From IMG/VR virus record IMGVR_UViG_2660238215_000016, positions 1 to 10,639 of that record: 10,639 bases of DNA. One strand, 5' to 3'. This document shows, piece after piece, positions 292-10,306 of this stretch. Below the pieces are notes generated by a model. It was given only the letters and a program-made list of their open reading frames with translations. It was not told the DNA's origin and did not search any database. The position numbers and the translations under genes are program-made. The stretch comes from a virus (lineage: Duplodnaviria > Heunggongvirae > Uroviricota > Caudoviricetes). Each line of letters starts with the position of its first letter. Position 1 is the stretch's first letter.

Positions 292-1382
292 GACCTTTTC
301 CACCATATAAAGGAACAATAAATTCTTTTCTGATAGAGATTTAAATAAAAATACATTATTTTACAAAAAAATAATATCCATTACAAAAACATCCGATTTT
401 TTTATATTCCCGCTCATCCTGCTAATTTGTATTACAAAAAAATGAAACAACTTGAACCAAAGTGATACAAAATTAGAAAAGAAAACCCCAGGAAGACAAA
501 GAAGACGATCTTTTTCAATGAGTTACACTGATTTATTGACTATGATTTTTAGCAAAACAATCGAAAGCAATGTGTACCGAGAAGGTTAAAAGATGGAATG
601 GATAGTTATTGACACAGTGATATGCCCATCAAGCGGAATAACGTTTTCAACTGTATGGTGTAAAATAAAGTTGATAATCTGGTATCAGTCAGATGTGTTC
701 CTGCCACCCGGAAGTATTCTCACACCTGTTAACTCAGGTGTGATTATGGATAATAAGCTGCTTCCATTAACCATTTACAACGTGACACCATTTAACAGAA
801 AATTCTGGTTCCTTATCAGAAATCAAAAAGAGTGCCCCGGGAATTCAGTTAAAACAAAAATAAAATGCCATAATAGTATGTGTGTACTGATGATATGCCC
901 GTATGGATTATATAAGTAACAACATATGAATACATAACAGATAAACTATTGACCTTGAGGCTCATCCATATAAAGAAGAGCTCTCCGAAGAGGTGTGTAT
1001 TTGCATGCACATTCCTTTTTTGCTCTATGTCATGACCTCCGGCGACTCTATCCCGGCACCAGCAAACCCGCATCATTCTCGTTTCCGGTGTCTCTAAAAC
1101 CACAGCACACCTGCCCCCCCGCTGAGGGAGGGAAGCACTGTATCCGTACACTCAGCAACAGAAATACCACCTGCTCACTGCGCTACATATCAGCAACAAT
1201 TTTATACCCGAACATTATCATTCAACAGCATGGTTCACAACAACATCATAACCCAGGAAACGAGAATCAGATCAAAAAAACAGAAATTTTACATGAAAAA
1301 TACTTTTTATTAATATTGATAGCGTCGTACCACAAAATACGATGAATTATCCCTGAACTTAACATTAATGCCAGTATGTATT

Positions 1383-1513: not shown

Positions 1514-2590
1514 TTATTCATCCTTCCCGTCATCAATTGAGCATGTAAGGATGTGACTAATCTCCTTAACGGTCTGCGCAAAACGTTCTGCCTCCAGTTC
1601 AACACCAGTTGCACGACGCCCGAGCGCCATAGCTGCTTTTATGGTTGAGCCAGAACCCATGAAAAAATCCGCCACCAGGTCACCCGGACGACTGCTCGCG
1701 CAGATTATCTGCCGCAGCATTTCTGCCGGTTTTTCGCACGGATGTTTCCCTGGATAGTACTGCACCGGTTTATGCGTCCACACATCGGTGTACGGCACCT
1801 GCACCGTCACACCGAAATACCGCCGCAAATTTTTATATTCACTCAGCAGTTCCATGTACTGTCGGTTCAGCTCACTGTATGTGCTGACCAGTTGGTAATG
1901 GGACTTTTCCAGTTCTCCCCGCTGATGTTTCTCTTCTGCCACCCGGGCAAACAGCGACTGTAATTTCAGATAATCGCTTTCGTTCGGTAGCTGCCACTGA
2001 CTGGCACTGAACCAGTGCGACACCATGTTTTTCTTTCCTGTGGCATCTGCAATCTGTTTTGCTGTTATCCCAAGAGCAGCACGCGCATCACGAAAGTAAG
2101 AAATCAGCGGGGCCATCACATGCTGTTTCAGTGCCCTGCCCTTCGCCTCATCGCCATCATCTTTCGGACGATACGGCCCCTGATAATGTTCCGCGAACAG
2201 AATGCGTTCTGTGGCCGGAAAATACGCCCGCAGGCTTTCCTTGTTGCACCCGTTCCAGCGTCCGGACGGCTTCGCCCAGATAATATGGTTCAGCACATTG
2301 AAGCGTTCACGCATCATGATTTCAATGTCAGATGCCAGGCGATGGTCACAGAACAGGTAAAGACTTCCGGCAGGTTTCAGCACCCGCCAGAACTGCGCCA
2401 GACACTGGTCCAGCCACTTCAGGTAATCATCGTCGCCCTTCCACTGGTTATCCCAGCCCTCGGGCTTCACTTTAAAGTATGGCGGGTCTGTGACTATCAG
2501 ATCGACAGAGTTTTCCGGTAAGGTCTGGATAAATTCCAGGCAATCAGCGTTGATTAACTCACAACTGGATATTTTTACAGTATTAAGCAT
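1514..2590 (-). CDS. Phage-encoded DNA methyltransferase (N6-adenine/N4-cytosine amino-methyltransferase, beta-class motif order)
   Basis: 358-aa ORF with ATG start. Motif IV DLIVTDPPY near the N-terminus and SAM-binding motif I FFMGSGST near the C-terminus (order IV then I). Position downstream of Q in the late transcript matches lambdoid prophage orphan methylases. Confidence 0.85.
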   Translation of the reverse strand: MLNTVKISSCELINADCLEFIQTLPENSVDLIVTDPPYFKVKPEGWDNQWKGDDDYLKWLDQCLAQFWRVLKPAGSLYLFCDHRLASDIEIMMRERFNVLNHIIWAKPSGRWNGCNKESLRAYFPATERILFAEHYQGPYRPKDDGDEAKGRALKQHVMAPLISYFRDARAALGITAKQIADATGKKNMVSHWFSASQWQLPNESDYLKLQSLFARVAEEKHQRGELEKSHYQLVSTYSELNRQYMELLSEYKNLRRYFGVTVQVPYTDVWTHKPVQYYPGKHPCEKPAEMLRQIICASSRPGDLVADFFMGSGSTIKAAMALGRRATGVELEAERFAQTVKEISHILTCSIDDGKDE

Positions 2591-3161: not shown

Positions 3162-3728
3162 TCAAAAAGCAATAACTTTTTTCTCTATACCAAAAGCCAT
3201 AACCATTGGTTTGTACAAAATAAATTCTGCCACCTTTAGCCAATGCTCAATGCGTCTTTCACAGGTTCTTAAACTCCATTCCGGATGTGCATCATTCAGC
3301 AGTTCAGCCATTTTGCGCTTAGTCATCCCCCGCCCCACATAACGCTGACTCAGAACATTGAGCAGCCCGGGATAACCTGCCAGTACTTCACCAATAACCC
3401 TGTCGATTATTAACGCCTCTGAATCGGTACAATGTGCCAGCCAGCTTTTTTGATTGCCGTTGATCATATCCCGCAAAAAAGCCTCAAGTTCAGGTTTGTC
3501 CAGACCCGCTTTTTTCATCCTCCGGAGCGCCTCGTTAATTGCCGTTTTTGTCAGCTTTTTAGAGGTCAGTAATTGGTTGAACATATTTCCCGTCTTACCG
3601 TCGCCAATATACGACCAACGCCCCCACATACGCAGTTTCCCCTGGATCCAGACACTTTCCAGCGTTTTCAGGCGTAAATGCTCACCGCTTTTGCCTGTAA
3701 TTTCCGGGTATATCATATTTATGCTCAC
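3162..3728 (-). CDS. Q-like late-gene antitermination protein
   Basis: 188-aa ORF directly downstream of rusA (GTGA start/stop overlap at 3725-3728; in-frame ATG at 3716 is an alternative start) and directly upstream of a strong terminator. N-terminal region LRMWGRWS...FNQLLTSKKLTK resembles the WGAW...GLITSKVKSR region of 933W/82-type Q proteins (recalled, not searched). Synteny rusA-Q-terminator is typical. Confidence 0.6.
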   Translation of the reverse strand: MSINMIYPEITGKSGEHLRLKTLESVWIQGKLRMWGRWSYIGDGKTGNMFNQLLTSKKLTKTAINEALRRMKKAGLDKPELEAFLRDMINGNQKSWLAHCTDSEALIIDRVIGEVLAGYPGLLNVLSQRYVGRGMTKRKMAELLNDAHPEWSLRTCERRIEHWLKVAEFILYKPMVMAFGIEKKVIAF

Positions 3729-4084
3729 TCACTTTCAATTTTGTAAATCTTCACGCCCAGCCGCCCACCAGAAACGAGCTGACCGCGCACAATATTGATT
3801 TCATCAAACTGCTCGTCGTCTATGAGAAGTCCGGCATGCGTCAGCGCATCCAGCGGTGCTTTCAGGATATTGTCCAGATCACGACGGCGCTTATCCGGTG
3901 GCTCTGCAATAATCTTTATCGCCAGCCTTCCGGACAGGCTTAATTTCAGCCGCTGCTGGCGAACAATAAGCGCCACAGCCCGGCGATAACGCTTTCCCTC
4001 CTCCGAGATAAAATATGTGCTGCCACGGCGTCGCCAGTAAGTGTTCACCGTCGGCGGGTAAGGTAAAACCAAATCTATGAGCAT
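3725..4084 (-). CDS. rusA: RusA Holliday-junction resolvase (crossover junction endodeoxyribonuclease)
   Basis: 119-aa ORF. LPYPPTVNTYWRRRG...PDKRRRDLDNILKAPLDALTHAGLLIDDEQ matches the RusA family catalytic core (DRRRRDLDN / D-x-L motif region); length about 120 aa as in E. coli RusA. Good SD (AGAGGTGA) 5 nt upstream of ATG. Confidence 0.9.
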   Translation of the reverse strand: MLIDLVLPYPPTVNTYWRRRGSTYFISEEGKRYRRAVALIVRQQRLKLSLSGRLAIKIIAEPPDKRRRDLDNILKAPLDALTHAGLLIDDEQFDEINIVRGQLVSGGRLGVKIYKIESE

Positions 4085-4096
4085 CAGTCACCTCTT

Positions 4097-5146
4097 TTAC
4101 CCAAGCACGCCAGTTGCAAAGGCGTGATCAAGAAAACGAAAAATTAAATCAACCTGAGAGCCATGCTTTTCTTCGAACGCCAGCGGATCCGCATGAAGCT
4201 CGTTGTGATGCTCCCGACACAGCGGTAGCGTGAAAATATCGTGAGATTTTGTCCCCATTCCGCCCTGACCATGACCAATCAGGTGATGGGGATCGTCGGC
4301 TGGCTTACCACAACACGCACACGGCTGAGTCTTCACCCAGCGTGTGTATTTCTCGTTAACCCAGCGGCGACGTTTAGGTCGTTTCATGAAAGATTCCGGA
4401 GACTCAGGATCAACGGCAATGCTGACCACCGTCTTTTCCTGTGGTGGGTTCTGTTGCTGGTGGACGTCAGGCAGTAACGCAATATTTTTTGTGCGCTGCT
4501 TCAGTATGCTGGTGGCGGTCTGCTCTCCCGGCACGATGTCGCTTTCACGGTACATTGAGCGGATTTTTTCCGCACGCACCCCCAGCGAACGACGTAATAC
4601 CGCTTCCGGTAGCGCGTCCGCCACCTGATTGCGGACCGCCCACCAGGATAATTCAGCCAAAGATAATTCACGCTCCTGCGTACCGCTTATTGCGTGACCG
4701 ATGACGTCAATCATCCATGCTGACAGGTTTTGATGAGCAAGTTGCTCGAGTGATTCGGATGTCTGGTCACGCAGCTGGTTGTCGCAGTGCCAGCACAACA
4801 CCATTGCGCCGGTACCATAACGGTGAATGACAGTTTCGCTGTGATGATAATCGCCGTGTGGCCACTGGCAGGATTTCACGTGACGCAACAGCCAGTCAGA
4901 CAATGCACCAGCACCACCAGCAGCACGAATCACCCGTGCGTTACTGAAAAACGGCAGCAATGTTTTGTCTTCCACCAGCGGCTGGCGAACGGCAGGAACG
5001 ACCCCGGACGGCAGATTACGCATGCTTTTCGGTTCCGGCTCCATCAATACCCGGGTATTGTGGAATACTGGCATGGATTCACGGCCCGGCTTAACGATCA
5101 CCAGCCCGAGTTCCGGTACCAGAACAGGTCGAAGTAATACCCGCAC
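4097..5146 (-). CDS. DUF968 family prophage protein (YdfU-like) with C-terminal Cys/His-rich HNH-like region
   Basis: 349-aa ORF, the same length as K-12 Qin YdfU from memory. C-terminus CACCGKPADDPHHLIGHGQGGMGTKSHDIFTLPLCREHHNELH is a Cys/His cluster typical of DUF968. Lies in the conserved position upstream of rusA. Confidence 0.75.
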   Translation of the reverse strand: MRVLLRPVLVPELGLVIVKPGRESMPVFHNTRVLMEPEPKSMRNLPSGVVPAVRQPLVEDKTLLPFFSNARVIRAAGGAGALSDWLLRHVKSCQWPHGDYHHSETVIHRYGTGAMVLCWHCDNQLRDQTSESLEQLAHQNLSAWMIDVIGHAISGTQERELSLAELSWWAVRNQVADALPEAVLRRSLGVRAEKIRSMYRESDIVPGEQTATSILKQRTKNIALLPDVHQQQNPPQEKTVVSIAVDPESPESFMKRPKRRRWVNEKYTRWVKTQPCACCGKPADDPHHLIGHGQGGMGTKSHDIFTLPLCREHHNELHADPLAFEEKHGSQVDLIFRFLDHAFATGVLG

Positions 5147-5147
5147 G

Positions 5148-5426
5148 TTACCTCCAGATGCGTTGCTGGAATGTGCGAGACGGACGCGGTGGGCGTTCAG
5201 AGTAAGGAAGCCTGACGGAGATTATCCAGTGACGGTAGTCGAGACTAAGGGCTTTCTTAACCTCGTATCCGCGCCTGCGGTAACACTGAATTATCCATTC
5301 AGCCTGCTCTTCAGTACATGGAGGGTGTTGGAACCATTCAGACTTGAATGCGTGAGAATACCGCTCGTGCGTGCAGGCAAGAACGGGCGAATTATCAGAA
5401 TTGTAATATTTTACGTTGCGTGCCAT
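5148..5426 (-). CDS. Hypothetical phage protein (92 aa), tightly coupled to the downstream DUF968 gene
   Basis: ATG start with GGAGAA SD about 7 nt upstream; its stop codon is 1 nt from the start codon of the 4097..5146 gene. No family recognised. Confidence 0.55.
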   Translation of the reverse strand: MARNVKYYNSDNSPVLACTHERYSHAFKSEWFQHPPCTEEQAEWIIQCYRRRGYEVKKALSLDYRHWIISVRLPYSERPPRPSRTFQQRIWR

Positions 5427-5492
5427 CGGTTTTCTCCGGTGGCACGGTGTTACTCAGCGGGAGTTCAGCCCCGCGCAAGATTGTAGATGAGT

Positions 5493-5744
5493 TTATTCTT
5501 CTGCAAAAGCTGAAAAGCCTGCTTTTATTCCGATCTCTTTCAGTGCCTGTAATGAAGTGACAAACTCACCTTCGCGCAAGATAAATCCGTCTGTCACTCG
5601 ACCATCCACAAAATTAATTAACGCAGCCCCATTCTTTCGCAAACACATAATGCGGTAATGACTAACAAGATTTCCATTTTCAACGCACACAGCATAGAGG
5701 CCATCTTCACAAAAAATTTTACGCAGTTCTTCGATGTTCATCAT
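5493..5744 (-). CDS. Small prophage protein, Rem-like (83 aa)
   Basis: ATG start with GGAAGGA SD. Length and position (between hokD and the ydfU-like gene) match the Qin prophage rem gene; assigned by synteny and length from memory, not by sequence comparison. Confidence 0.55.
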   Translation of the reverse strand: MMNIEELRKIFCEDGLYAVCVENGNLVSHYRIMCLRKNGAALINFVDGRVTDGFILREGEFVTSLQALKEIGIKAGFSAFAEE

Positions 5745-5860
5745 CAGAATCCTTCCGGATAATTAGCTCTCCCCTTTAAGGGACCATCCCTCTTATCCCT
5801 GCGCGCTACTTAAGTATTTTTGATTCTATTCCGGCGCCGTCCAGAACTTCAAACGCGTTG

Positions 5861-5891
5861 AAAATAAAAACAAAAACCCGCCGAAGCGGGT
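5861..5891 (-). terminator. Rho-independent terminator at the 3' end of the hok mRNA (fbi/terminator region)
   Basis: Minus strand: hairpin ACCCGC-TTCG-GCGGGT followed by TTTTGTTTTTATTTT, about 70 nt downstream of the hok stop codon. Confidence 0.65.
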
Positions 5892-5960
5892 TAAGTGCGG
5901 GTGCGTTGAGGATGCCTGCCACATCAGAGGTGGCGAGGGATTTCTCCCTCGCCGGGTCTC

Positions 5961-6116
5961 TTACTCCTCAGGTTCGTAAGCTGTGAAGACAGCGACCTCC
6001 GTCTGGCCGGTTCGGATTCGTACCTCGCAGAGGTCTTTCCTCGTTACCAGTGCCGTCACTATGACGGTTAAACAGATGACGATCAGGGCGATTAACATCG
6101 CCTTTTGCTGCTTCAT
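5961..6116 (-). CDS. hokD: Hok-family type I toxin (HokD/RelF-type small membrane toxin)
   Basis: 51-aa translation MKQQKAMLIALIVICLTVIVTALVTRKDLCEVRIRTGQTEVAVFTAYEPEE matches HokD as I recall it; AAGGAG SD about 9 nt upstream of ATG at 6116. Confidence 0.9.
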   Translation of the reverse strand: MKQQKAMLIALIVICLTVIVTALVTRKDLCEVRIRTGQTEVAVFTAYEPEE

Positions 6117-6173
6117 AGCCTGCTTCTCCTTGCCTTTCGGCACGTAAGAGGCTAACCTACATGTGTCTAGCAT
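5961..6173 (-). CDS. mok-like overlapping reading frame (modulator of killing) through which hok translation is coupled
   Basis: 70-aa ORF starting at ATG 6173 and co-terminal with hok (MLDTCRLASYVPKGKEKQA-MKQQK...), the same architecture as mok/hok in plasmid R1 hok/sok. Confidence 0.5.
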   Translation of the reverse strand: MLDTCRLASYVPKGKEKQAMKQQKAMLIALIVICLTVIVTALVTRKDLCEVRIRTGQTEVAVFTAYEPEE

Positions 6174-6200
6174 GAAATTGGCCTCAGATTAATGTTAAGC
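6135..6200 (+). ncRNA. Predicted Sok-like antisense RNA region (coordinates approximate)
   Basis: Placed by analogy with R1 hok/sok, where Sok is antisense to the hok leader around the mok SD and start. Here the mok ATG is at 6171-6173 and the tac-like 5' element of the hok mRNA (GCTTGAGGCTATCTGTCTCA on the minus strand) lies near 6265-6285. Promoter and ends not confidently read. Confidence 0.3.
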
Positions 6201-6291
6201 GTCTTGCAGGACGCGTAATGTTAACTGGGGCTTTTCTCTATCTGCCTTTGGTGTTCATGCCTGAGACAGATAGCCTCAAGCACCCGCAGCC

Positions 6292-6320
6292 ATTCTACTT
6301 AACTCCCGTTACCCCGCCAA
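6292..6320 (-). promoter_or_regulatory. Putative sigma70 promoter of the hok/mok mRNA
   Basis: Minus strand: -35 TTGGCG (6315-6320), 17-nt spacer, -10 TAGAAT (6292-6297), immediately upstream of the tac-like GCTTGAGGCT leader element. Confidence 0.4.
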
Positions 6321-6429
6321 TATGAAATCAGTCAGAAAGGCGATCCATAAGAATAATGAATTCTGTAAGGCAATAGTCTCACTGTCTAACATATCTTACC
6401 TGATTACTTTACAATATAATAATTCATAG

Positions 6430-7065
6430 TTAAATCAAATGAATGTCATCATCCAATAATTCATTAGTAGTAATACTACCTTTTTTGAAAAAATTTTCAT
6501 TTGCCTCAGCAATTTTTGCATCATTAACAAATTCATCACACATCCCAAAATAATGAAAAAATCTATTTAGTTTACATATTCCAATGGTATAGTGCCCTTT
6601 AGGTGTTTTGTCCACATAAACACGATTTGCTTTTATAATATGCATCTCATAATCATCTATATGTGGATGAACGATGCGAAATGATGCAGATGCAGTTGGA
6701 TAGTTTTTGCGCCGCCCCCCATTTATTACGGGTTCAAATAACACTTCATTTTTACCTTTGAATTCATTGCAGTCAGGACATACTACACATAGATTCTTAG
6801 GTTCAAAAATAAAACATAGATATTGAGATTTTGGCACAATATGCTCTATAGGAGCAGCTTGTGCAGCTCTTACCCCAATAGGCTCATGACAATATACACA
6901 TTCTAGCTTTTGTTCTTCTCTGTAATGATTTCTAATTTCTGCACGGAGAACTTGCAAATCATCATCTCCCCAGTTGGTATGCTTAAAATCTGGAGAAGAC
7001 AATTTTTTCTCAATAATATCTAATGACTCTGCGCTGAATCTAATTGGATTTTTAATTTTTGGCAT
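6430..7065 (-). CDS. HNH endonuclease, PtuB-like (downstream gene of a Septu-like ATPase+HNH pair)
   Basis: His-Me finger read from translation: CVYCHE ... EHIVPKS ... CVVCPDCNEFKGKN (CxxC...H...N...CxxC). ATG at 7065 with AGGTG upstream; the ORF track start (7074) is an in-frame GTG. Overlaps the upstream ATPase gene by 14 nt (23 nt with the GTG start). Strongly AT-rich by eye. Confidence 0.8.
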   Translation of the reverse strand: MPKIKNPIRFSAESLDIIEKKLSSPDFKHTNWGDDDLQVLRAEIRNHYREEQKLECVYCHEPIGVRAAQAAPIEHIVPKSQYLCFIFEPKNLCVVCPDCNEFKGKNEVLFEPVINGGRRKNYPTASASFRIVHPHIDDYEMHIIKANRVYVDKTPKGHYTIGICKLNRFFHYFGMCDEFVNDAKIAEANENFFKKGSITTNELLDDDIHLI

Positions 7066-8425
7066 AAATTTCACACACCTGAGATACGGAATTTACGAGT
7101 TCATTAATAGGGTCATTACTATTAACGTTTTCAAGGAGAAGCTGGAGTTGTTTTAATTCACGCCAATTATCATCTGTTACTAACTTAGCAGTCTTAACTT
7201 TTGAAAGTAAATTGAAAGCTAATCTGGCAATGTATTCATTCATAATGCCAGGGGCATCAAATAGTTCCGCAAGTTGATAGTCTGCAGACCGGTTGCTAAA
7301 GTATTTTGCTTTATAAAGATAACTTTTCGACAAAGATGTTATATAACAACCTTTATTCGGCAAATTGGATATTATTTGTGGTGAATGAGTTGCAATTATG
7401 AATTGACAACCTGAGTAAGTTAAAAATGCTTTTGTTAACATAATGATAAACTCTTCCTGCCATCGAGGATGCAAGCTTATTTCCGGTTCATCAATTAGTA
7501 TTATAGAACCATCAGTTATATGCCCTGCAATTCCAAGCAACATCACTAATAAACATTGTTCTCCCGAGCTCGCACGTTTAAGTGACATGGGACCATAGCT
7601 TTTTTTTATGAGTCGCATATCCATCAATCTCATGAAGCCAGCGTTCATAAGTTTAAGAATTGATCTAGAAAAATAATTATTCGCATAAGTCGAGCCAACC
7701 AATGTTTCACCATTGGTAAAATCGACTGACAAGGTTACAGCCCTACGTTCAGGTTCAAATCGATTAATTTCAACCAGTGCTTCGTAAATATCATGACGTG
7801 ATTCGGAGTTTAACTTTAAGAGACTCTCAATATTCTTCCTGTCAATTTTTATATTGTATTTTAAATATAACTCCTTAACTTCCGTTAATATCTCATCTGA
7901 ATATACACCAATGAAGTTATAGTCAGGAGTGTCCGGTCCGTTGTAAGTTGGTTTAAATACAAACTCTATATGGGGCTCAAAATCAATAGAATGAAAAACA
8001 TCGAGTAAATTTGCAGGATTTTCTGAATAAGCAAGTTTCTCTAGCCAACCTCTCGCTGCTGAAGATAAAAGGGATACGGCATTTGATACGCCGAAGGGGC
8101 CTTCTCCACGCATACCCACATAGCGATAATTATTTTCTTTCCTTTGGTGATTTAATGACCTACGCCCTGGAGGGAATTTATCGAATGGGCTGGTAGATAC
8201 GGCAATTAACTTTGGTGTTATTTCTCTGTCAAATAATGGATTAAAAGTTTTCAAGAAATGAACATCTTGAATACAGTCTTTAGCAATCTGAGATAACAAT
8301 CTGCTTTTTCCAACGCCATTTTTACCTACAATTACTGTAAAAATATTCGCATTATCAGAAACATCACCTTCTATAGCAAGTTTTAAGGTTCGACTATCAT
8401 GATGGGTATAATATAGTCTTTTCAT
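7052..8425 (-). CDS. ABC-type (AAA_15/AAA_21-like) ATPase, PtuA-like (upstream gene of a Septu-like pair)
   Basis: 457-aa ORF with Walker A GKNGVGKS near the N-terminus, ABC-signature-like SSGEQ, Walker B IILIDEPE and H-loop IIATHSP near the C-terminus. This spacing is typical of OLD/PtuA/AriA-type ABC ATPases. AT-rich; overlaps the downstream HNH gene. Confidence 0.85.
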   Translation of the reverse strand: MKRLYYTHHDSRTLKLAIEGDVSDNANIFTVIVGKNGVGKSRLLSQIAKDCIQDVHFLKTFNPLFDREITPKLIAVSTSPFDKFPPGRRSLNHQRKENNYRYVGMRGEGPFGVSNAVSLLSSAARGWLEKLAYSENPANLLDVFHSIDFEPHIEFVFKPTYNGPDTPDYNFIGVYSDEILTEVKELYLKYNIKIDRKNIESLLKLNSESRHDIYEALVEINRFEPERRAVTLSVDFTNGETLVGSTYANNYFSRSILKLMNAGFMRLMDMRLIKKSYGPMSLKRASSGEQCLLVMLLGIAGHITDGSIILIDEPEISLHPRWQEEFIIMLTKAFLTYSGCQFIIATHSPQIISNLPNKGCYITSLSKSYLYKAKYFSNRSADYQLAELFDAPGIMNEYIARLAFNLLSKVKTAKLVTDDNWRELKQLQLLLENVNSNDPINELVNSVSQVCEIYAKN

Positions 8426-8837: not shown

Positions 8838-9083
8838 TTAGACTTCGATCGATTCAGAGATCTCTAATGCATCATCAACTTCTATACCCAGATAACGAAC
8901 TGTGCTTTCCGTTTTCTTATGGCCCAACGGAAGTTGGATCACCCGGAGATTCTTAGTTTTCTTGCAGACAAGGCAAGGTTTTGTTCTTCTCATGGAATGT
9001 GTGCTGTAAAGCGAATCTTCGAGACCAAGCTTTTCTCCCCCCTATGAAAGATTCGGTTATATTGCAGGATTGATATGTGTTGG
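8838..9083 (-). pseudogene. C-terminal fragment of a tyrosine recombinase/integrase (truncated remnant)
   Basis: Minus-strand frame translates to ...FHRGGEKLGLEDSLYSTHSMRRTKPCLVCKKTKNLRVIQLPLGHKKTESTVRYLGIEVDDALEISESIEV*, carrying the C-terminal catalytic signature H-x-x-R ... LGH ... T-x-R-Y. Only about 80 codons are open (stop at 9084-9086), and a full-length integrase cannot fit before the 280-aa gene, so it is a truncated relic. Different frames in the neighbouring 8953..9135 and 9206..9406 ORFs are consistent with decay. Confidence 0.45.
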
Positions 9084-9463
9084 TTAGTACCGACCCGAGA
9101 TCGGAACAAGTAGTCTTTACTGCGTAAATTGCCAAGCTTTATCAATGCAGAAACAGCTTCTCTTGTCCCTTTGGTTATCTCAAATTGGATAGGACTGCCA
9201 GTTTTTCAGTTGCAGCACCGTAGCTCTGCTTGAAACCGAGCTAAATCACGCGTTTTACCTTCCAGTTCAAGCCGGATTTGGAGCCCCCAGATATGAGATA
9301 TCTGAAGTGGTCTTTTTGGGCCTATGATACTGTCTTTGTTCCTCGGTGACGTATTCATACTCAAATCTCCTGCAATGTGGAAGATTTGAGTATGGTTGTC
9401 TCTCAAGAGCGAAATAGGTCAACTATAACTAGTTGTTGTGCATGTACGAATTCTGCCAATTAA

Positions 9464-10306
9464 TTATTGACAATAAAAAATTCTGGAATGTTCGAAATCA
9501 TCATATCGAATTATAATCTGGTTGACTGCATCTATTGTTGGCGCCATTTCAGTTATAATATCTCGATAACCTAAAGAGTTAAATACATTTACTAAGGCCT
9601 CACACCGCAGGCCAATAGCAATTACGACATTATAAATTGCCAGCCGTTTATTTTCTTGTTTAACTGCAAGAGTGAGTTCGATAGCAGTAGTTTTATCGCT
9701 TTGGATTGCATTATATAGAGATACTATATTTGCCATATCATCAGAGAATGTATGTATTGAATCACAAAGAGGGACGTAATAGGCATGATAGTGTGTTTCC
9801 CAGCCAATTACTTCGAAAAGCTTTTTGGTTCCAGGATATTCAGGTGTATTTGGCCACAATCTATTAAACATATCAGTTAGCTCTTTTCCGATACGAATCC
9901 TTTCATCTGCTGCTGGATTAGTCATTTCTTTGGATTTTAAACACTCCAGCCACCGTTTCCCATTACTATGAACTAATTTCTTACTACCCTTGAGTAATGC
10001 TTGTGCATTTTTTCCATCATCAATTGCTATATAAAATTGATTGGCAGCCTGTTCCATTATAACTCTAGTTAATACTTCCGATGCTGAAAAGGCTCCGGTA
10101 CTCAAAGAAAATATAGCCTGATTACTAAGTTCATTCAGTACATTAAAGTAATGTAAAACCATCAATTTTTGTTCCACCCCCTTTAGGTTATCTATTTTAT
10201 CTTTATGCCTCTCAAATTTCGCATGGATATATTTATTTATCGCGGCTATTTTTTTTACATCTTCGTCGAAATCAAACGGGCAACGTCCAAACGATTTTTT
10301 CCTCAT
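9464..10306 (-). CDS. Hypothetical protein (280 aa), unrecognised family; accessory/defence-island cargo
   Basis: Long intact ORF with ATG start, near-consensus SD (AGGAGG, 6-nt spacing) and a perfect -10 TATAAT at 10345-10350 upstream. AT-rich like the ATPase/HNH genes. No motifs I can assign with confidence. Confidence 0.75.
   Translation of the reverse strand: MRKKSFGRCPFDFDEDVKKIAAINKYIHAKFERHKDKIDNLKGVEQKLMVLHYFNVLNELSNQAIFSLSTGAFSASEVLTRVIMEQAANQFYIAIDDGKNAQALLKGSKKLVHSNGKRWLECLKSKEMTNPAADERIRIGKELTDMFNRLWPNTPEYPGTKKLFEVIGWETHYHAYYVPLCDSIHTFSDDMANIVSLYNAIQSDKTTAIELTLAVKQENKRLAIYNVVIAIGLRCEALVNVFNSLGYRDIITEMAPTIDAVNQIIIRYDDFEHSRIFYCQ

Follow-up and report, generated by a model that had tools for sequence, protein, structure and literature searches.

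A complete hokD-type hok/mok/sok module in a lambdoid prophage remnant, very probably the widespread full-length form from which K-12 relB-relE-hokD derives

Introduction

The hok/sok (parB) locus of plasmid R1/IncFII, a plasmid-borne system with demonstrated PSK, is laid out as a promoter, a GGCGCUUGAGGC-type tac element at +1, a leader hairpin, a 3′ fbi element complementary to tac and a terminal hairpin. In the IncFII R1-type locus mok and hok are read in one frame, with the mok ATG 57 nt (19 codons) before that of hok, and the antisense sok promoter overlaps the mok–hok junction. The hokW-sokW locus of prophage Sp5 (the Stx2 phage VT2-Sakai) of E. coli O157:H7 was shown by Takada et al. 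2021 (PMC8621323) to be a working type I TA system: hokW is toxic, sokW counteracts it, and the pair has a phenotype when the prophage is induced; there, sokW is complementary to 71 nt of the hokW 5′ UTR, and HokW is 44% identical to R1 Hok (PMC8621323). PMC12214031 describes the K-12 hok loci apart from hokB as put out of action by IS elements or by rearrangement of the genome and, citing Pedersen & Gerdes 1999, ascribes to such rearrangement the absence of TA components from K-12 hokD. Overexpression of the HokD coding sequence is toxic (bioRxiv 10.1101/2025.08.07.668861). Editing of a Tyr codon to Cys has been reported for K-12 hokD at a level of 6%, and the edited Cys, which toxic homologs carry at the same position, has been given a role in Hok toxicity (PMC12214031).

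Here we analyse a hokD-type locus in a 10,639-nt stretch of prophage DNA (the window). Positions 6320-5866 of its minus strand very probably constitute a complete hokD-type hok/mok/sok type I TA module, which represents the widespread full-length form and of which the K-12 relB-relE-hokD arrangement is a derivative. The module is set in a lambdoid prophage remnant. As a locus it is an ordinary copy of a well-known addiction module that most E. coli prophages carry; its complete form is the common one there and is routinely annotated, and the near-identical relative hokW-sokW has been characterised experimentally. In Stx phages the same module goes by the name hokW-sokW.

Anatomy of the module and its relatives

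The minus strand carries a promoter, a tac leader, a 70-aa mok, the 51-aa Hok, fbi and a terminator, and opposite them lies an antisense gene, Sok, driven by a separate promoter (Table 1). Hok is 100% identical to K-12 HokD/RelF (tblastn E 7e-31), and a single accession, WP_000813254.1 (hokD), covers Hok in the K-12-like strain DH1 and in the exact-match strain. The Pfam family PF01848 HOK_GEF matches it over the entire profile (1-42/42; E 3e-23, 81.6 bits, cutoff 22). The mok ORF is an N-terminal extension of hok in the same frame with a common stop codon, as is likewise annotated for MokW and MokC; its ATG is kept in 11/11 relatives, and its 213-nt counterpart is annotated 'MokW-like host killing' in VT2-Sakai and in phage HannyBb. 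The Rfam covariance model RF01794, which describes the hok-sense leader from tac through the hok AUG, matched the hok strand at 6285-6111 over its full length (model 1-157/157; 118.3 bits, gathering score 59; E 4.3e-27), and it also matched Sp5 hokW (113.5 bits) and R1-type hok (87.2 bits). The Rfam score, the Pfam HOK_GEF match and the RNA fold (z = -8.4, see below) far exceed chance resemblance.

Table 1. Features of the hok/mok/sok locus in window coordinates
Feature	Position (strand)	Details
Conserved stretch 5′ of hok promoter	6357-6321 (-)	6357/6358 is a recurrent homology boundary
hok promoter	6320-6292 (-)	Consensus scan; -35 TTGGCG 6320-6315, 17-nt spacer, -10 TAGAAT 6297-6292
Predicted full-length hok mRNA	6285 to ~5866-5869 (-)	About 417-420 nt
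tac element	6285-6274 (-)	GGGUGCUUGAGG; mRNA 5′ end; invariant in 11/11 relatives
ucb	6273-6254 (-)	CUAUCUGUCUCAGGCAUGAA; doubles as 5′ arm of the leader hairpin
dcb	6157-6176 (-)	Overlaps mok start codon; target of Sok 5′ tail; inverted repeat I1
mok ORF	6173-5961 (-)	70 aa; ATG 6173-6171; GAGG Shine-Dalgarno within 6187-6180
hok ORF	6116-5961 (-)	51 aa; AAGGAG Shine-Dalgarno 6131-6126
UACG motif, Tyr47 codon	5978-5975 (-)	TAC 5978-5976; TadA A-to-I editing context
fbi	5911-5899 (-)	CCUCAACGCACCC; complementary to tac
Intrinsic terminator	5892-5866 (-)	AACCCGCUUCGGCGGGUU followed by U run; scan site 5892-5875
Sok promoter	6130-6158 (+)	-35 TTGCCT 6130-6135, 17-nt spacer, -10 TAACCT 6153-6158
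Predicted Sok RNA	~6166-6239 (+)	~70-75 nt; approximate ends

Sp5 hokW-sokW is 92.4% identical to this locus in DNA over 6320-5889; it shares an identical tac, an in-frame 70-aa Mok, the sok promoter TTGCCT / TAACCT, fbi and the lambdoid prophage setting. The two differ at several positions in the Sok 5′ tail/mok-start segment, at the Hok C-terminus (...VFTAYEPEE here, ...VFVDYESEK in HokW) and in the sequence after fbi, where Sp5 is without the terminator seen here. The locus of phage HannyBb reaches 98.7% DNA identity. hokC/mokC/sokC (gef) is 74.9% identical in DNA over ~410 nt, with an identical tac, a nearly identical fbi and an in-frame MokC (69 aa) whose N-terminus resembles that of Mok here (MLNTCR versus MLDTCR), but it occupies a core-chromosome site beside dnaJ rather than a prophage, and its Sok hairpin segment is shorter. 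R1-type hok/sok shares the layout of promoter, tac, leader hairpin, fbi, terminal hairpin and overlapping sok promoter, whereas blastn finds just short leader or SD segments in common (77-82%), and R1 Hok belongs to another subgroup.

A sequence-only reading of the window had proposed an intact HokD-type toxin, a tac-like leader, a candidate promoter, a 3′ terminator and an mRNA of about 410 nt, and each of these was borne out, the predicted mRNA measuring ~417 nt. The 'overlapping 70-aa mok frame' of that reading holds as an ORF but not as a separate frame, mok and hok being read in one frame to one stop.

RNA structure and the antisense gene

The -10 hexamer of the hok promoter reads TAGAAT/TAGGAT/TACAAT/TCTAAT across an alignment of 11 relatives, and the spacing from -10 to GGCGCTTGAGG in the R1-type locus equals the spacing here. 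We infer from the sequence that the hok mRNA starts at G6285, 6 nt past the -10. The leader stretch GCTTGAGGCTATCTGTCTCA (6281-6262) falls within tac and ucb. At the other end, the terminator is the sole terminator-like site within 5700-6500 according to a simple scan, which may miss weak or Rho-dependent terminators.

The predicted hok mRNA folds with a minimum free energy (MFE) of -172.4 kcal/mol, against -126.1 +/- 5.5 for shuffled sequences (z = -8.38). In the consensus structure of 11 loci, 97.9% of cells are paired, and 13 pairs carry compensatory changes, compared with 4.6 +/- 1.5 in shuffles (0/500) and 0-2 in slid controls. Those of the leader hairpin, whose arms form inverted repeat I2 (6264-6284 / 6227-6247), fall at alignment columns 65:97 and 71:91. 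The MFE fold closes the molecule by pairing tac with fbi (mRNA positions 1-12 with 375-387); each of the 12 pairs of this helix is 100% paired in the 11 sequences and, since the helix is invariant, it provides conservation only and no covariation. The mean identity of fbi among the 11 relatives is 0.95. A second inverted repeat, I1, brings together ucb and dcb (6254-6273 with 6157-6176; 20 nt, 75% complementary). In the MFE fold of the 3′-truncated mRNA, the 5′ end folds locally, without the ucb/dcb pairing that the R1 model predicts; ucb/dcb complementarity is, by eye in the alignment, lower in Sp5.

On the opposite strand, the -35 of the Sok promoter is invariant among 11 relatives, and the 'pro-less' sokW construct of Sp5, which is without antitoxin activity, was made with a primer (YO-421) that alters exactly TAACCT (PMC8621323). 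The predicted Sok RNA begins with an unpaired 5′ tail that is complementary to the region around the mok start, continues with a long hairpin and then GGGGCUUUUCUCU, and folds at -30.3 kcal/mol (z = -5.5). The sequence-only reading had given the Sok gene no location; it is now placed on the plus strand. The dcb segment is the most variable one internal to the mRNA, with a mean pairwise identity of 0.58 over 6179-6160 (11 relatives). This Sok allele occurs at a median of 1 place per genome, and hokD-type loci at a median of 2. The hypervariability of the Sok 5′-tail/mok-start segment may keep the antitoxin of one hok/sok paralog from acting on another in the same cell.

Proposed mechanism and likely role

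The gene anatomy and the first two steps of the mechanism that we propose come from sequence and structure at this locus; the remaining three are carried over from R1 hok/sok and Sp5 hokW-sokW. The constitutive promoter TTGGCG-17-TAGAAT would yield a stable ~417-nt mRNA (step 1), which pairing between the 5′ tac and the 3′ fbi would close to ribosomes and to Sok (step 2). Slow 3′ trimming of ~40 nt, comprising the terminator and fbi, would then allow the leader to refold, uncovering the ribosome-binding site of mok together with the target of Sok (step 3). The unstable ~70-nt Sok would pair over the mok start, RNase III would cut the duplex and, because hok translation would depend on mok translation, no toxin would be made (step 4). 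Once Sok is no longer replenished, after DNA loss or a transcription shut-off such as might accompany phage infection or DNA damage, the pool of processed mRNA would be translated, and the 51-aa Hok would enter the inner membrane and depolarise it (step 5). Hok may become more toxic when TadA edits Tyr47 to Cys.

In this element, which has no replication, immunity or intact integrase genes, the module likely serves to stabilise the prophage remnant and the adjacent defence cargo, to trigger abortive infection, or both. Sp5 is an inducible phage and the element here is a remnant, so the role of hokW in phage release may not carry over, and assisted phage release seems unlikely for this locus.

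The best-surviving alternative, although we regard it as unlikely, is that the locus is anatomically intact but a functionally silent chromosomal relic, in which the mRNA and Sok may still be produced but with no killing on Sok decay and no stabilisation. Intact chromosomal hokA, hokB and hokC were reported to show no PSK and no activation by rifampicin (summarised in bioRxiv 10.1101/2025.08.07.668861), so that intact anatomy is no guarantee of activity. In HokD, position 47 is Tyr and not the Cys of toxic homologs, and the RNA editing that occurs at a low level (6%) in K-12 would be needed. The surrounding prophage is itself decayed: it contains IS3 copies and pseudogenes of integrase, and it lacks both a replication and an immunity module. 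Against silence, hokW-sokW, at 92.4% identity, has a toxin that sokW neutralises and a phenotype when its prophage is induced (PMC8621323), and the HokD coding sequence is itself toxic on overexpression. Moreover, phage, plasmid and chromosomal copies alike preserve all the regulatory elements, with base changes that compensate one another, which argues for continuing selection. That the module is independently expressed and active, as the sequence-only reading had suggested, is plausible by analogy with Sp5.

Neighbourhood and independent transcription

The 'cargo island' that begins upstream of hok is a Septu defence system, in which PADLOC identifies PtuA (7052-8425; E 1.2e-165) and PtuB (6430-7074; E 1.1e-83); the two genes overlap on one strand and encode Pfam AAA_21/AAA_15 and HNH domains. 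Septu is one among many alternative cargos at this prophage position. When 5800-6440 was used as query, many genomes matched query positions 1-558 and then diverged; the alignment with strain S1-ZIM likewise places the homology boundary at 6357/6358, and with a Septu query more than 500 genomes matched over the first 57-59 nt only.

This arrangement raises a second alternative, that hok is mainly the distal part of a ptuA-ptuB read-through transcript, as in the polycistronic relBEF of K-12, and that the toxin is thereby tied to the defence operon. Both Septu genes (ptuA 8425-7052, ptuB 7074-6430) lie directly upstream on the same strand, and the scan finds no terminator-like site from 6430 to the hok promoter. 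We consider this improbable: the promoter and tac, the latter exactly at the predicted 5′ end, are kept irrespective of the upstream cargo, and the same promoter and tac are found beside opposite-strand cargo (DUF4209 in L003) and with no cargo at all in E. coli B. Even an RNA with a longer 5′ end might still be subject to tac/fbi closure and to repression by Sok. The description of the locus as self-contained stands, since promoter, leader, antisense gene and terminator all belong to it.

Relationship to K-12 relB-relE-hokD

The gene order relB-relE-hokD in the K-12 Qin prophage, as given in the sequence-only reading, is confirmed. K-12 hokD is 99.4-99.6% identical in DNA to the locus here from 14 nt before the ATG through the 3′ UTR, fbi, the terminator and rem. 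The homology ends at window position 6130, 14 nt 5′ of the hok ATG, and K-12 is consequently without the mok start, sok, the hok leader of 155+ nt with tac and ucb, and the promoter. The end of relE sits instead 72 nt upstream of hokD, and K-12 retains an orphan fbi whose tac partner is absent. RF01794 gave no match to the K-12 relBE-hokD locus, and the only DNA common to the window and the K-12 relBE segment is a 14-nt stretch in the hok SD region. Remnants of relBE in the window were considered and rejected, as tblastn found no RelE or RelB homology anywhere along its length (best E 2.0 for RelE, 17 for RelB), in agreement with the earlier observation that relBE appears absent.

Of 5426 complete E. 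coli genomes, 3123 have the intact 5′ regulatory region and 1166 the K-12 relE-hokD junction, making the intact form ~2.7x commoner. It is found too in free phages and P1-like plasmids, and the leader here is homologous to the leaders of hokC, P1-like plasmids and Stx phages. Strain S1-ZIM and E. coli B both have a Qin-like backbone, cspB-cspF-ydfT-ydfU-rem-hokD, with an intact leader and no relBE. Because a cargo swap in a K-12-type locus cannot create an intact leader, the change very probably ran the other way. From anatomy and distribution we infer that K-12 relB-relE-hokD is a derivative in which everything 5′ of the hok Shine-Dalgarno was replaced.

The converse, offered in the sequence-only reading with K-12 as the reference state, is that relB-relE-hokD is ancestral and that the Septu island displaced relBE here; K-12 Qin does hold relB-relE-hokD at the equivalent position, between syntenic flanks (rem, ydfU-like, Q-like), but replacing relBE could not restore the missing K-12 leader, mok start, sok and promoter, and the existence of homologous leaders in hokC, P1-like plasmids and Stx phages, the orphan fbi, the frequency of the intact form and the lack of any relBE trace in the window make displacement highly improbable.

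Discussion

Taking the module here as the full-length form, the K-12 relBE-hokD locus appears as an atypical, truncated arrangement and the complete hokD/sok as the usual one, which corrects the use of K-12 as the point of reference. We tentatively propose, at somewhat short of even chances, that hok/sok forms the fixed edge (at 6357/6358) of a lambdoid cargo-exchange slot and that K-12 relBEF arose when a relBE swap overshot ~225 nt into the leader. Such a slot would lie between the replication module and hok and would hold, in different elements, nothing, Septu, a Paa adhesin, QueH, DUF4209 or other genes. If this is true, the K-12 toxin was once a type I toxin with regulation of its own, and the overshoot left it as the third cistron, no longer regulated, of a type II TA operon.

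For the Septu system, the finding places a predicted, potentially active membrane-toxin module with its antisense RNA 110 nt downstream of the defence genes, in the same orientation. The hok/sok module could confound work in which Septu is deleted or cloned, and it may co-stabilise the island.

A complete hok/mok/sok module

The window carries a real and complete hokD/hokW-type hok/mok/sok module, a type I toxin–antitoxin locus. Its 51-aa product is 100% identical to K-12 HokD (tblastn, E 7e-31) and matches the Pfam family HOK_GEF (E 3e-23). The same RefSeq accession, WP_000813254.1, is assigned to Hok in K-12-like DH1 and in strain 2013C-4974, the chromosome of which matches window 5800-6440 at 100%. 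The intact toxin, the 70-aa mok frame, the candidate promoter and the 3′ terminator proposed in the sequence-only reading were all found, the last two by scans; mok is in frame with hok, and the locus as a whole was confirmed essentially where that reading had placed it. The Sok gene, which it had missed, is placed here on the plus strand.

Features of the hok locus and the adjoining Septu genes (window coordinates)
Feature	Position	Strand	Basis or detail
PtuA ATPase (Septu)	7052-8425	-	PADLOC E 1e-165
PtuB HNH (Septu)	6430-7074	-	PADLOC E 1e-83
hok promoter TTGGCG-17-TAGAAT	6320-6292	-	promoter scan
predicted hok mRNA 5′ end	G6285	-	
tac GGGUGCUUGAGG	6285-6274	-	
ucb	6273-6254	-	
mok Shine-Dalgarno	within 6187-6180	-	
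dcb	6176-6157	-	
mok ORF, 70 aa, in-frame extension of hok	ATG 6173	-	ORF list
hok Shine-Dalgarno AAGGAG	6131-6126	-	
hok ORF, 51 aa	ATG 6116, stop 5963-5961	-	ORF list
UACG context at Tyr47 codon (TAC), TadA A-to-I editing motif	5978-5975	-	
fbi CCUCAACGCACCC	5911-5899	-	
terminator	5892-5866	-	terminator-like site 5892-5875, then T run
Sok promoter TTGCCT, 17-nt spacer, TAACCT	6130-6135, 6153-6158	+	sequence coordinates
predicted Sok RNA, about 70-75 nt	~6166 to 6239	+	

The predicted 417-nt hok mRNA folds at -172.4 kcal/mol, compared with -126.1 ± 5.5 for shuffles (z = -8.4), and in this fold tac (positions 1-12) is paired with fbi (positions 375-387). The tac/fbi pairing, the 5′ leader hairpin and ucb/dcb were all recovered independently by inverted-repeat detection. 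The predicted Sok RNA consists of a 5′ tail, a long hairpin and then GGGGCUUUUCUCU (-30.3 kcal/mol, z = -5.5). Rfam model RF01794 ('sok') gave a full-length match at 6285-6111 on the hok strand (118.3 bits, E 4.3e-27; gathering score 59). Despite being named 'sok antitoxin', the model is hok-sense and in effect spans the hok mRNA leader, with tac at one end and the hok AUG at the other, so the strand of a hit is not to be taken for that of Sok.

Relatives and predicted activity

The module is already known: it is common, annotated by PGAP and modelled in both Rfam and Pfam, and a near-identical relative has been characterised experimentally. The locus of phage HannyBb is 98.7% identical to that of the window, and the closest characterised relative is hokW-sokW of VT2-Sakai/Sp5 (Sakai prophage 5), with 92.4% identity. 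HokW is toxic, and its neutralisation by sokW, which is transcribed from a promoter of its own, depends on RNase III and Hfq; RecA is needed for mitomycin C to deplete sokW and induce HokW, and deletion of hokW-sokW halves Sp5 release (Takada et al., PMC8621323). The primers of that study match the leader in the window, and its sok 'pro-less' mutation changes exactly the TAACCT placed at window 6153-6158. An R1-type IncFII locus shares the architecture of the window locus: its -10 is followed by 6 nt and GGCGCUUGAGG, its mok ATG precedes hok by 57 nt, and its 3′ end has fbi and then a terminal hairpin.

Our analysis establishes the gene anatomy, the closed mRNA fold and conservation. By analogy with R1 and hokW, trimming of ~40 nt from the 3′ end would remove fbi and open the hok mRNA, Sok would pair across the mok start and elicit RNase III cleavage, translation of hok would be coupled to that of mok, and decay of the unstable Sok would allow Hok to be produced. 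The module is probably functional. That it is intact but silent seems unlikely, a reading favoured by the intact chromosomal hokA, hokB and hokC loci, for which bioRxiv 10.1101/2025.08.07.668861 summarises earlier work as finding neither PSK nor activation by rifampicin. TadA editing of Tyr47 is a possible further layer: K-12 hokD is reported to be 6% edited at this codon (Tyr to Cys), and more toxic Hok homologs have Cys there (PMC12214031).

The K-12 relBE-hokD arrangement

The K-12 relB-relE-hokD arrangement given in the sequence-only reading is borne out by K-12-like DH1, where the order is rem-hokD-relE-relB. Homology between K-12 and the window ends at 6130, 14 nt upstream of the hok ATG, so the mok start, sok, ucb/tac and the promoter are all missing from the K-12 hokD locus. 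This locus retains the 3′ fbi and the terminator, and because tac is missing this fbi is an orphan with no partner. RF01794 matched the window, Sp5 and the R1-type plasmid locus, with no match in the K-12 locus. The proposed absence of relBE also held, as tblastn and blastn over the entire window revealed no trace of RelE, RelB or relBE.

Of 5426 complete E. coli genomes, 3123 carry the 227-nt 5′ regulatory region (6131-6357) at a coverage of at least 80%, and 1166 have the K-12 relE-hokD junction. S1-ZIM and E. coli B have the Qin-type backbone cspB-cspF-ydfT-ydfU-rem-hokD with an intact leader and without relBE, and the intact form occurs in 110 phage records and also in P1-like/IncY plasmids. 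Because the relBE arrangement loses sequence that could not be regenerated, and because the intact leader is homologous to those found in hokC and in copies on plasmids and phages, sequence comparison indicates that the K-12 form is derived. This agrees with the view in PMC12214031, citing Pedersen & Gerdes 1999, that among the K-12 hok loci only hokB escaped inactivation by IS elements or by genomic rearrangements that took away canonical TA components. Displacement of relBE by the island is not supported, since the intact leader could not be regenerated from the K-12 form.

A Septu system in a variable cargo slot

The 'cargo island' directly upstream of hok (6430-8425) is a Septu anti-phage system, with its genes on the same strand as hok. 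In a simple scan of 5700-6500 the only terminator-like site was that downstream of hok, with none between Septu and the hok promoter. The junction of Septu with hok occurs in only 19/5426 complete E. coli genomes, and the homology boundary recurs between genomes at window 6357/6358 (including comparison loci L001, L003, L004, L006, L014, L015 and L016). Between the lambdoid replication module (DUF977/Ren-like) and the start of the hok leader is a slot with variable cargo: E. coli B has none, S1-ZIM has DUF4209, O157/PPompW the Paa adhesin, strain S8 QueH, UTI89 two hypothetical genes, K-12 relBE, which cuts into the hok leader, and the window Septu. We infer a possible cargo-slot origin for the K-12 relBEF operon, the one mildly new angle here.

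The host element is a degraded lambdoid prophage at tRNA-Ser/mtfA, with IS3 copies and integrase pseudogenes and with no replication or immunity module; because its replication, immunity and integration half is missing or replaced, it is a non-inducible remnant. The rest of the window (593-919 (+), 1514-2590 (-), 3162-5744 (-)) is the late-regulatory part of the prophage, syntenic with K-12 Qin and O157 prophages, and encodes an iraM-like anti-adapter, a DNA methyltransferase, a DUF1133/Q-like antiterminator, RusA, DUF968 (ydfU-like), a 92-aa ORF and rem. Past Septu (window ~8839-9359 (-), 9464-10306 (-); comparison locus L002 12039-15591) lie a frameshifted tyrosine-integrase pseudogene, a DUF5677 gene, an IS3 element, a second integrase fragment and tRNA-Ser.

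Conservation among hokD-type loci

We aligned 11 hokD-type loci from chromosomal prophages, the free phages VT2-Sakai, PPompW, PhiR12_3 and 606R7, a P1-like phage, a Klebsiella IncY phage-plasmid and chromosomal hokC. The RNAalifold consensus retained the tac/fbi closure, with 97.9% of cells paired. Compensatory changes were seen at 13 pairs, versus 4.6 ± 1.5 in column shuffles (0/500) and 0-2 when partners were slid by 1-3 columns, mainly in the leader hairpin, the Sok-hairpin region and one 3′ UTR stem; tac, being invariant, gives conservation without covariation. Mean identity by segment was 1.00 for both tac and the sok -35, and 0.95 and 0.92 for fbi and the hok CDS, respectively. Among these relatives the mRNA varies most in the Sok 5′-tail/mok-start segment (window 6160-6179 (-)), with a mean pairwise identity of 0.58. 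Per genome, the median number of places is 1 for the window's allele of this segment and 2 (maximum 10) for hokD-type loci; such variability may insulate co-resident paralogs from one another's Sok RNAs.

The frame of mok relative to hok also varies among close relatives (alignment A2 of these loci, window 6173-6114; L007, L008, L010). The two share a frame (mok 70 aa) in the window, hokW, PPompW and hokC; mok stops at TAG 3 nt ahead of the hok ATG in phage PhiR12_3, and a 1-nt insertion separates the two frames in the P1-like and IncY copies. This fits the idea that mok translation, not the Mok protein, is what counts. In P1-like phage-plasmids, hokD-type loci about 88% identical adjoin repL (L007 and L010, from P1-like phage MH445381.1 and from CP110609.1, an IncY plasmid of Klebsiella pneumoniae). 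Lambdoid prophages and phage-plasmids therefore have this hok subtype in common, and it circulates between them.
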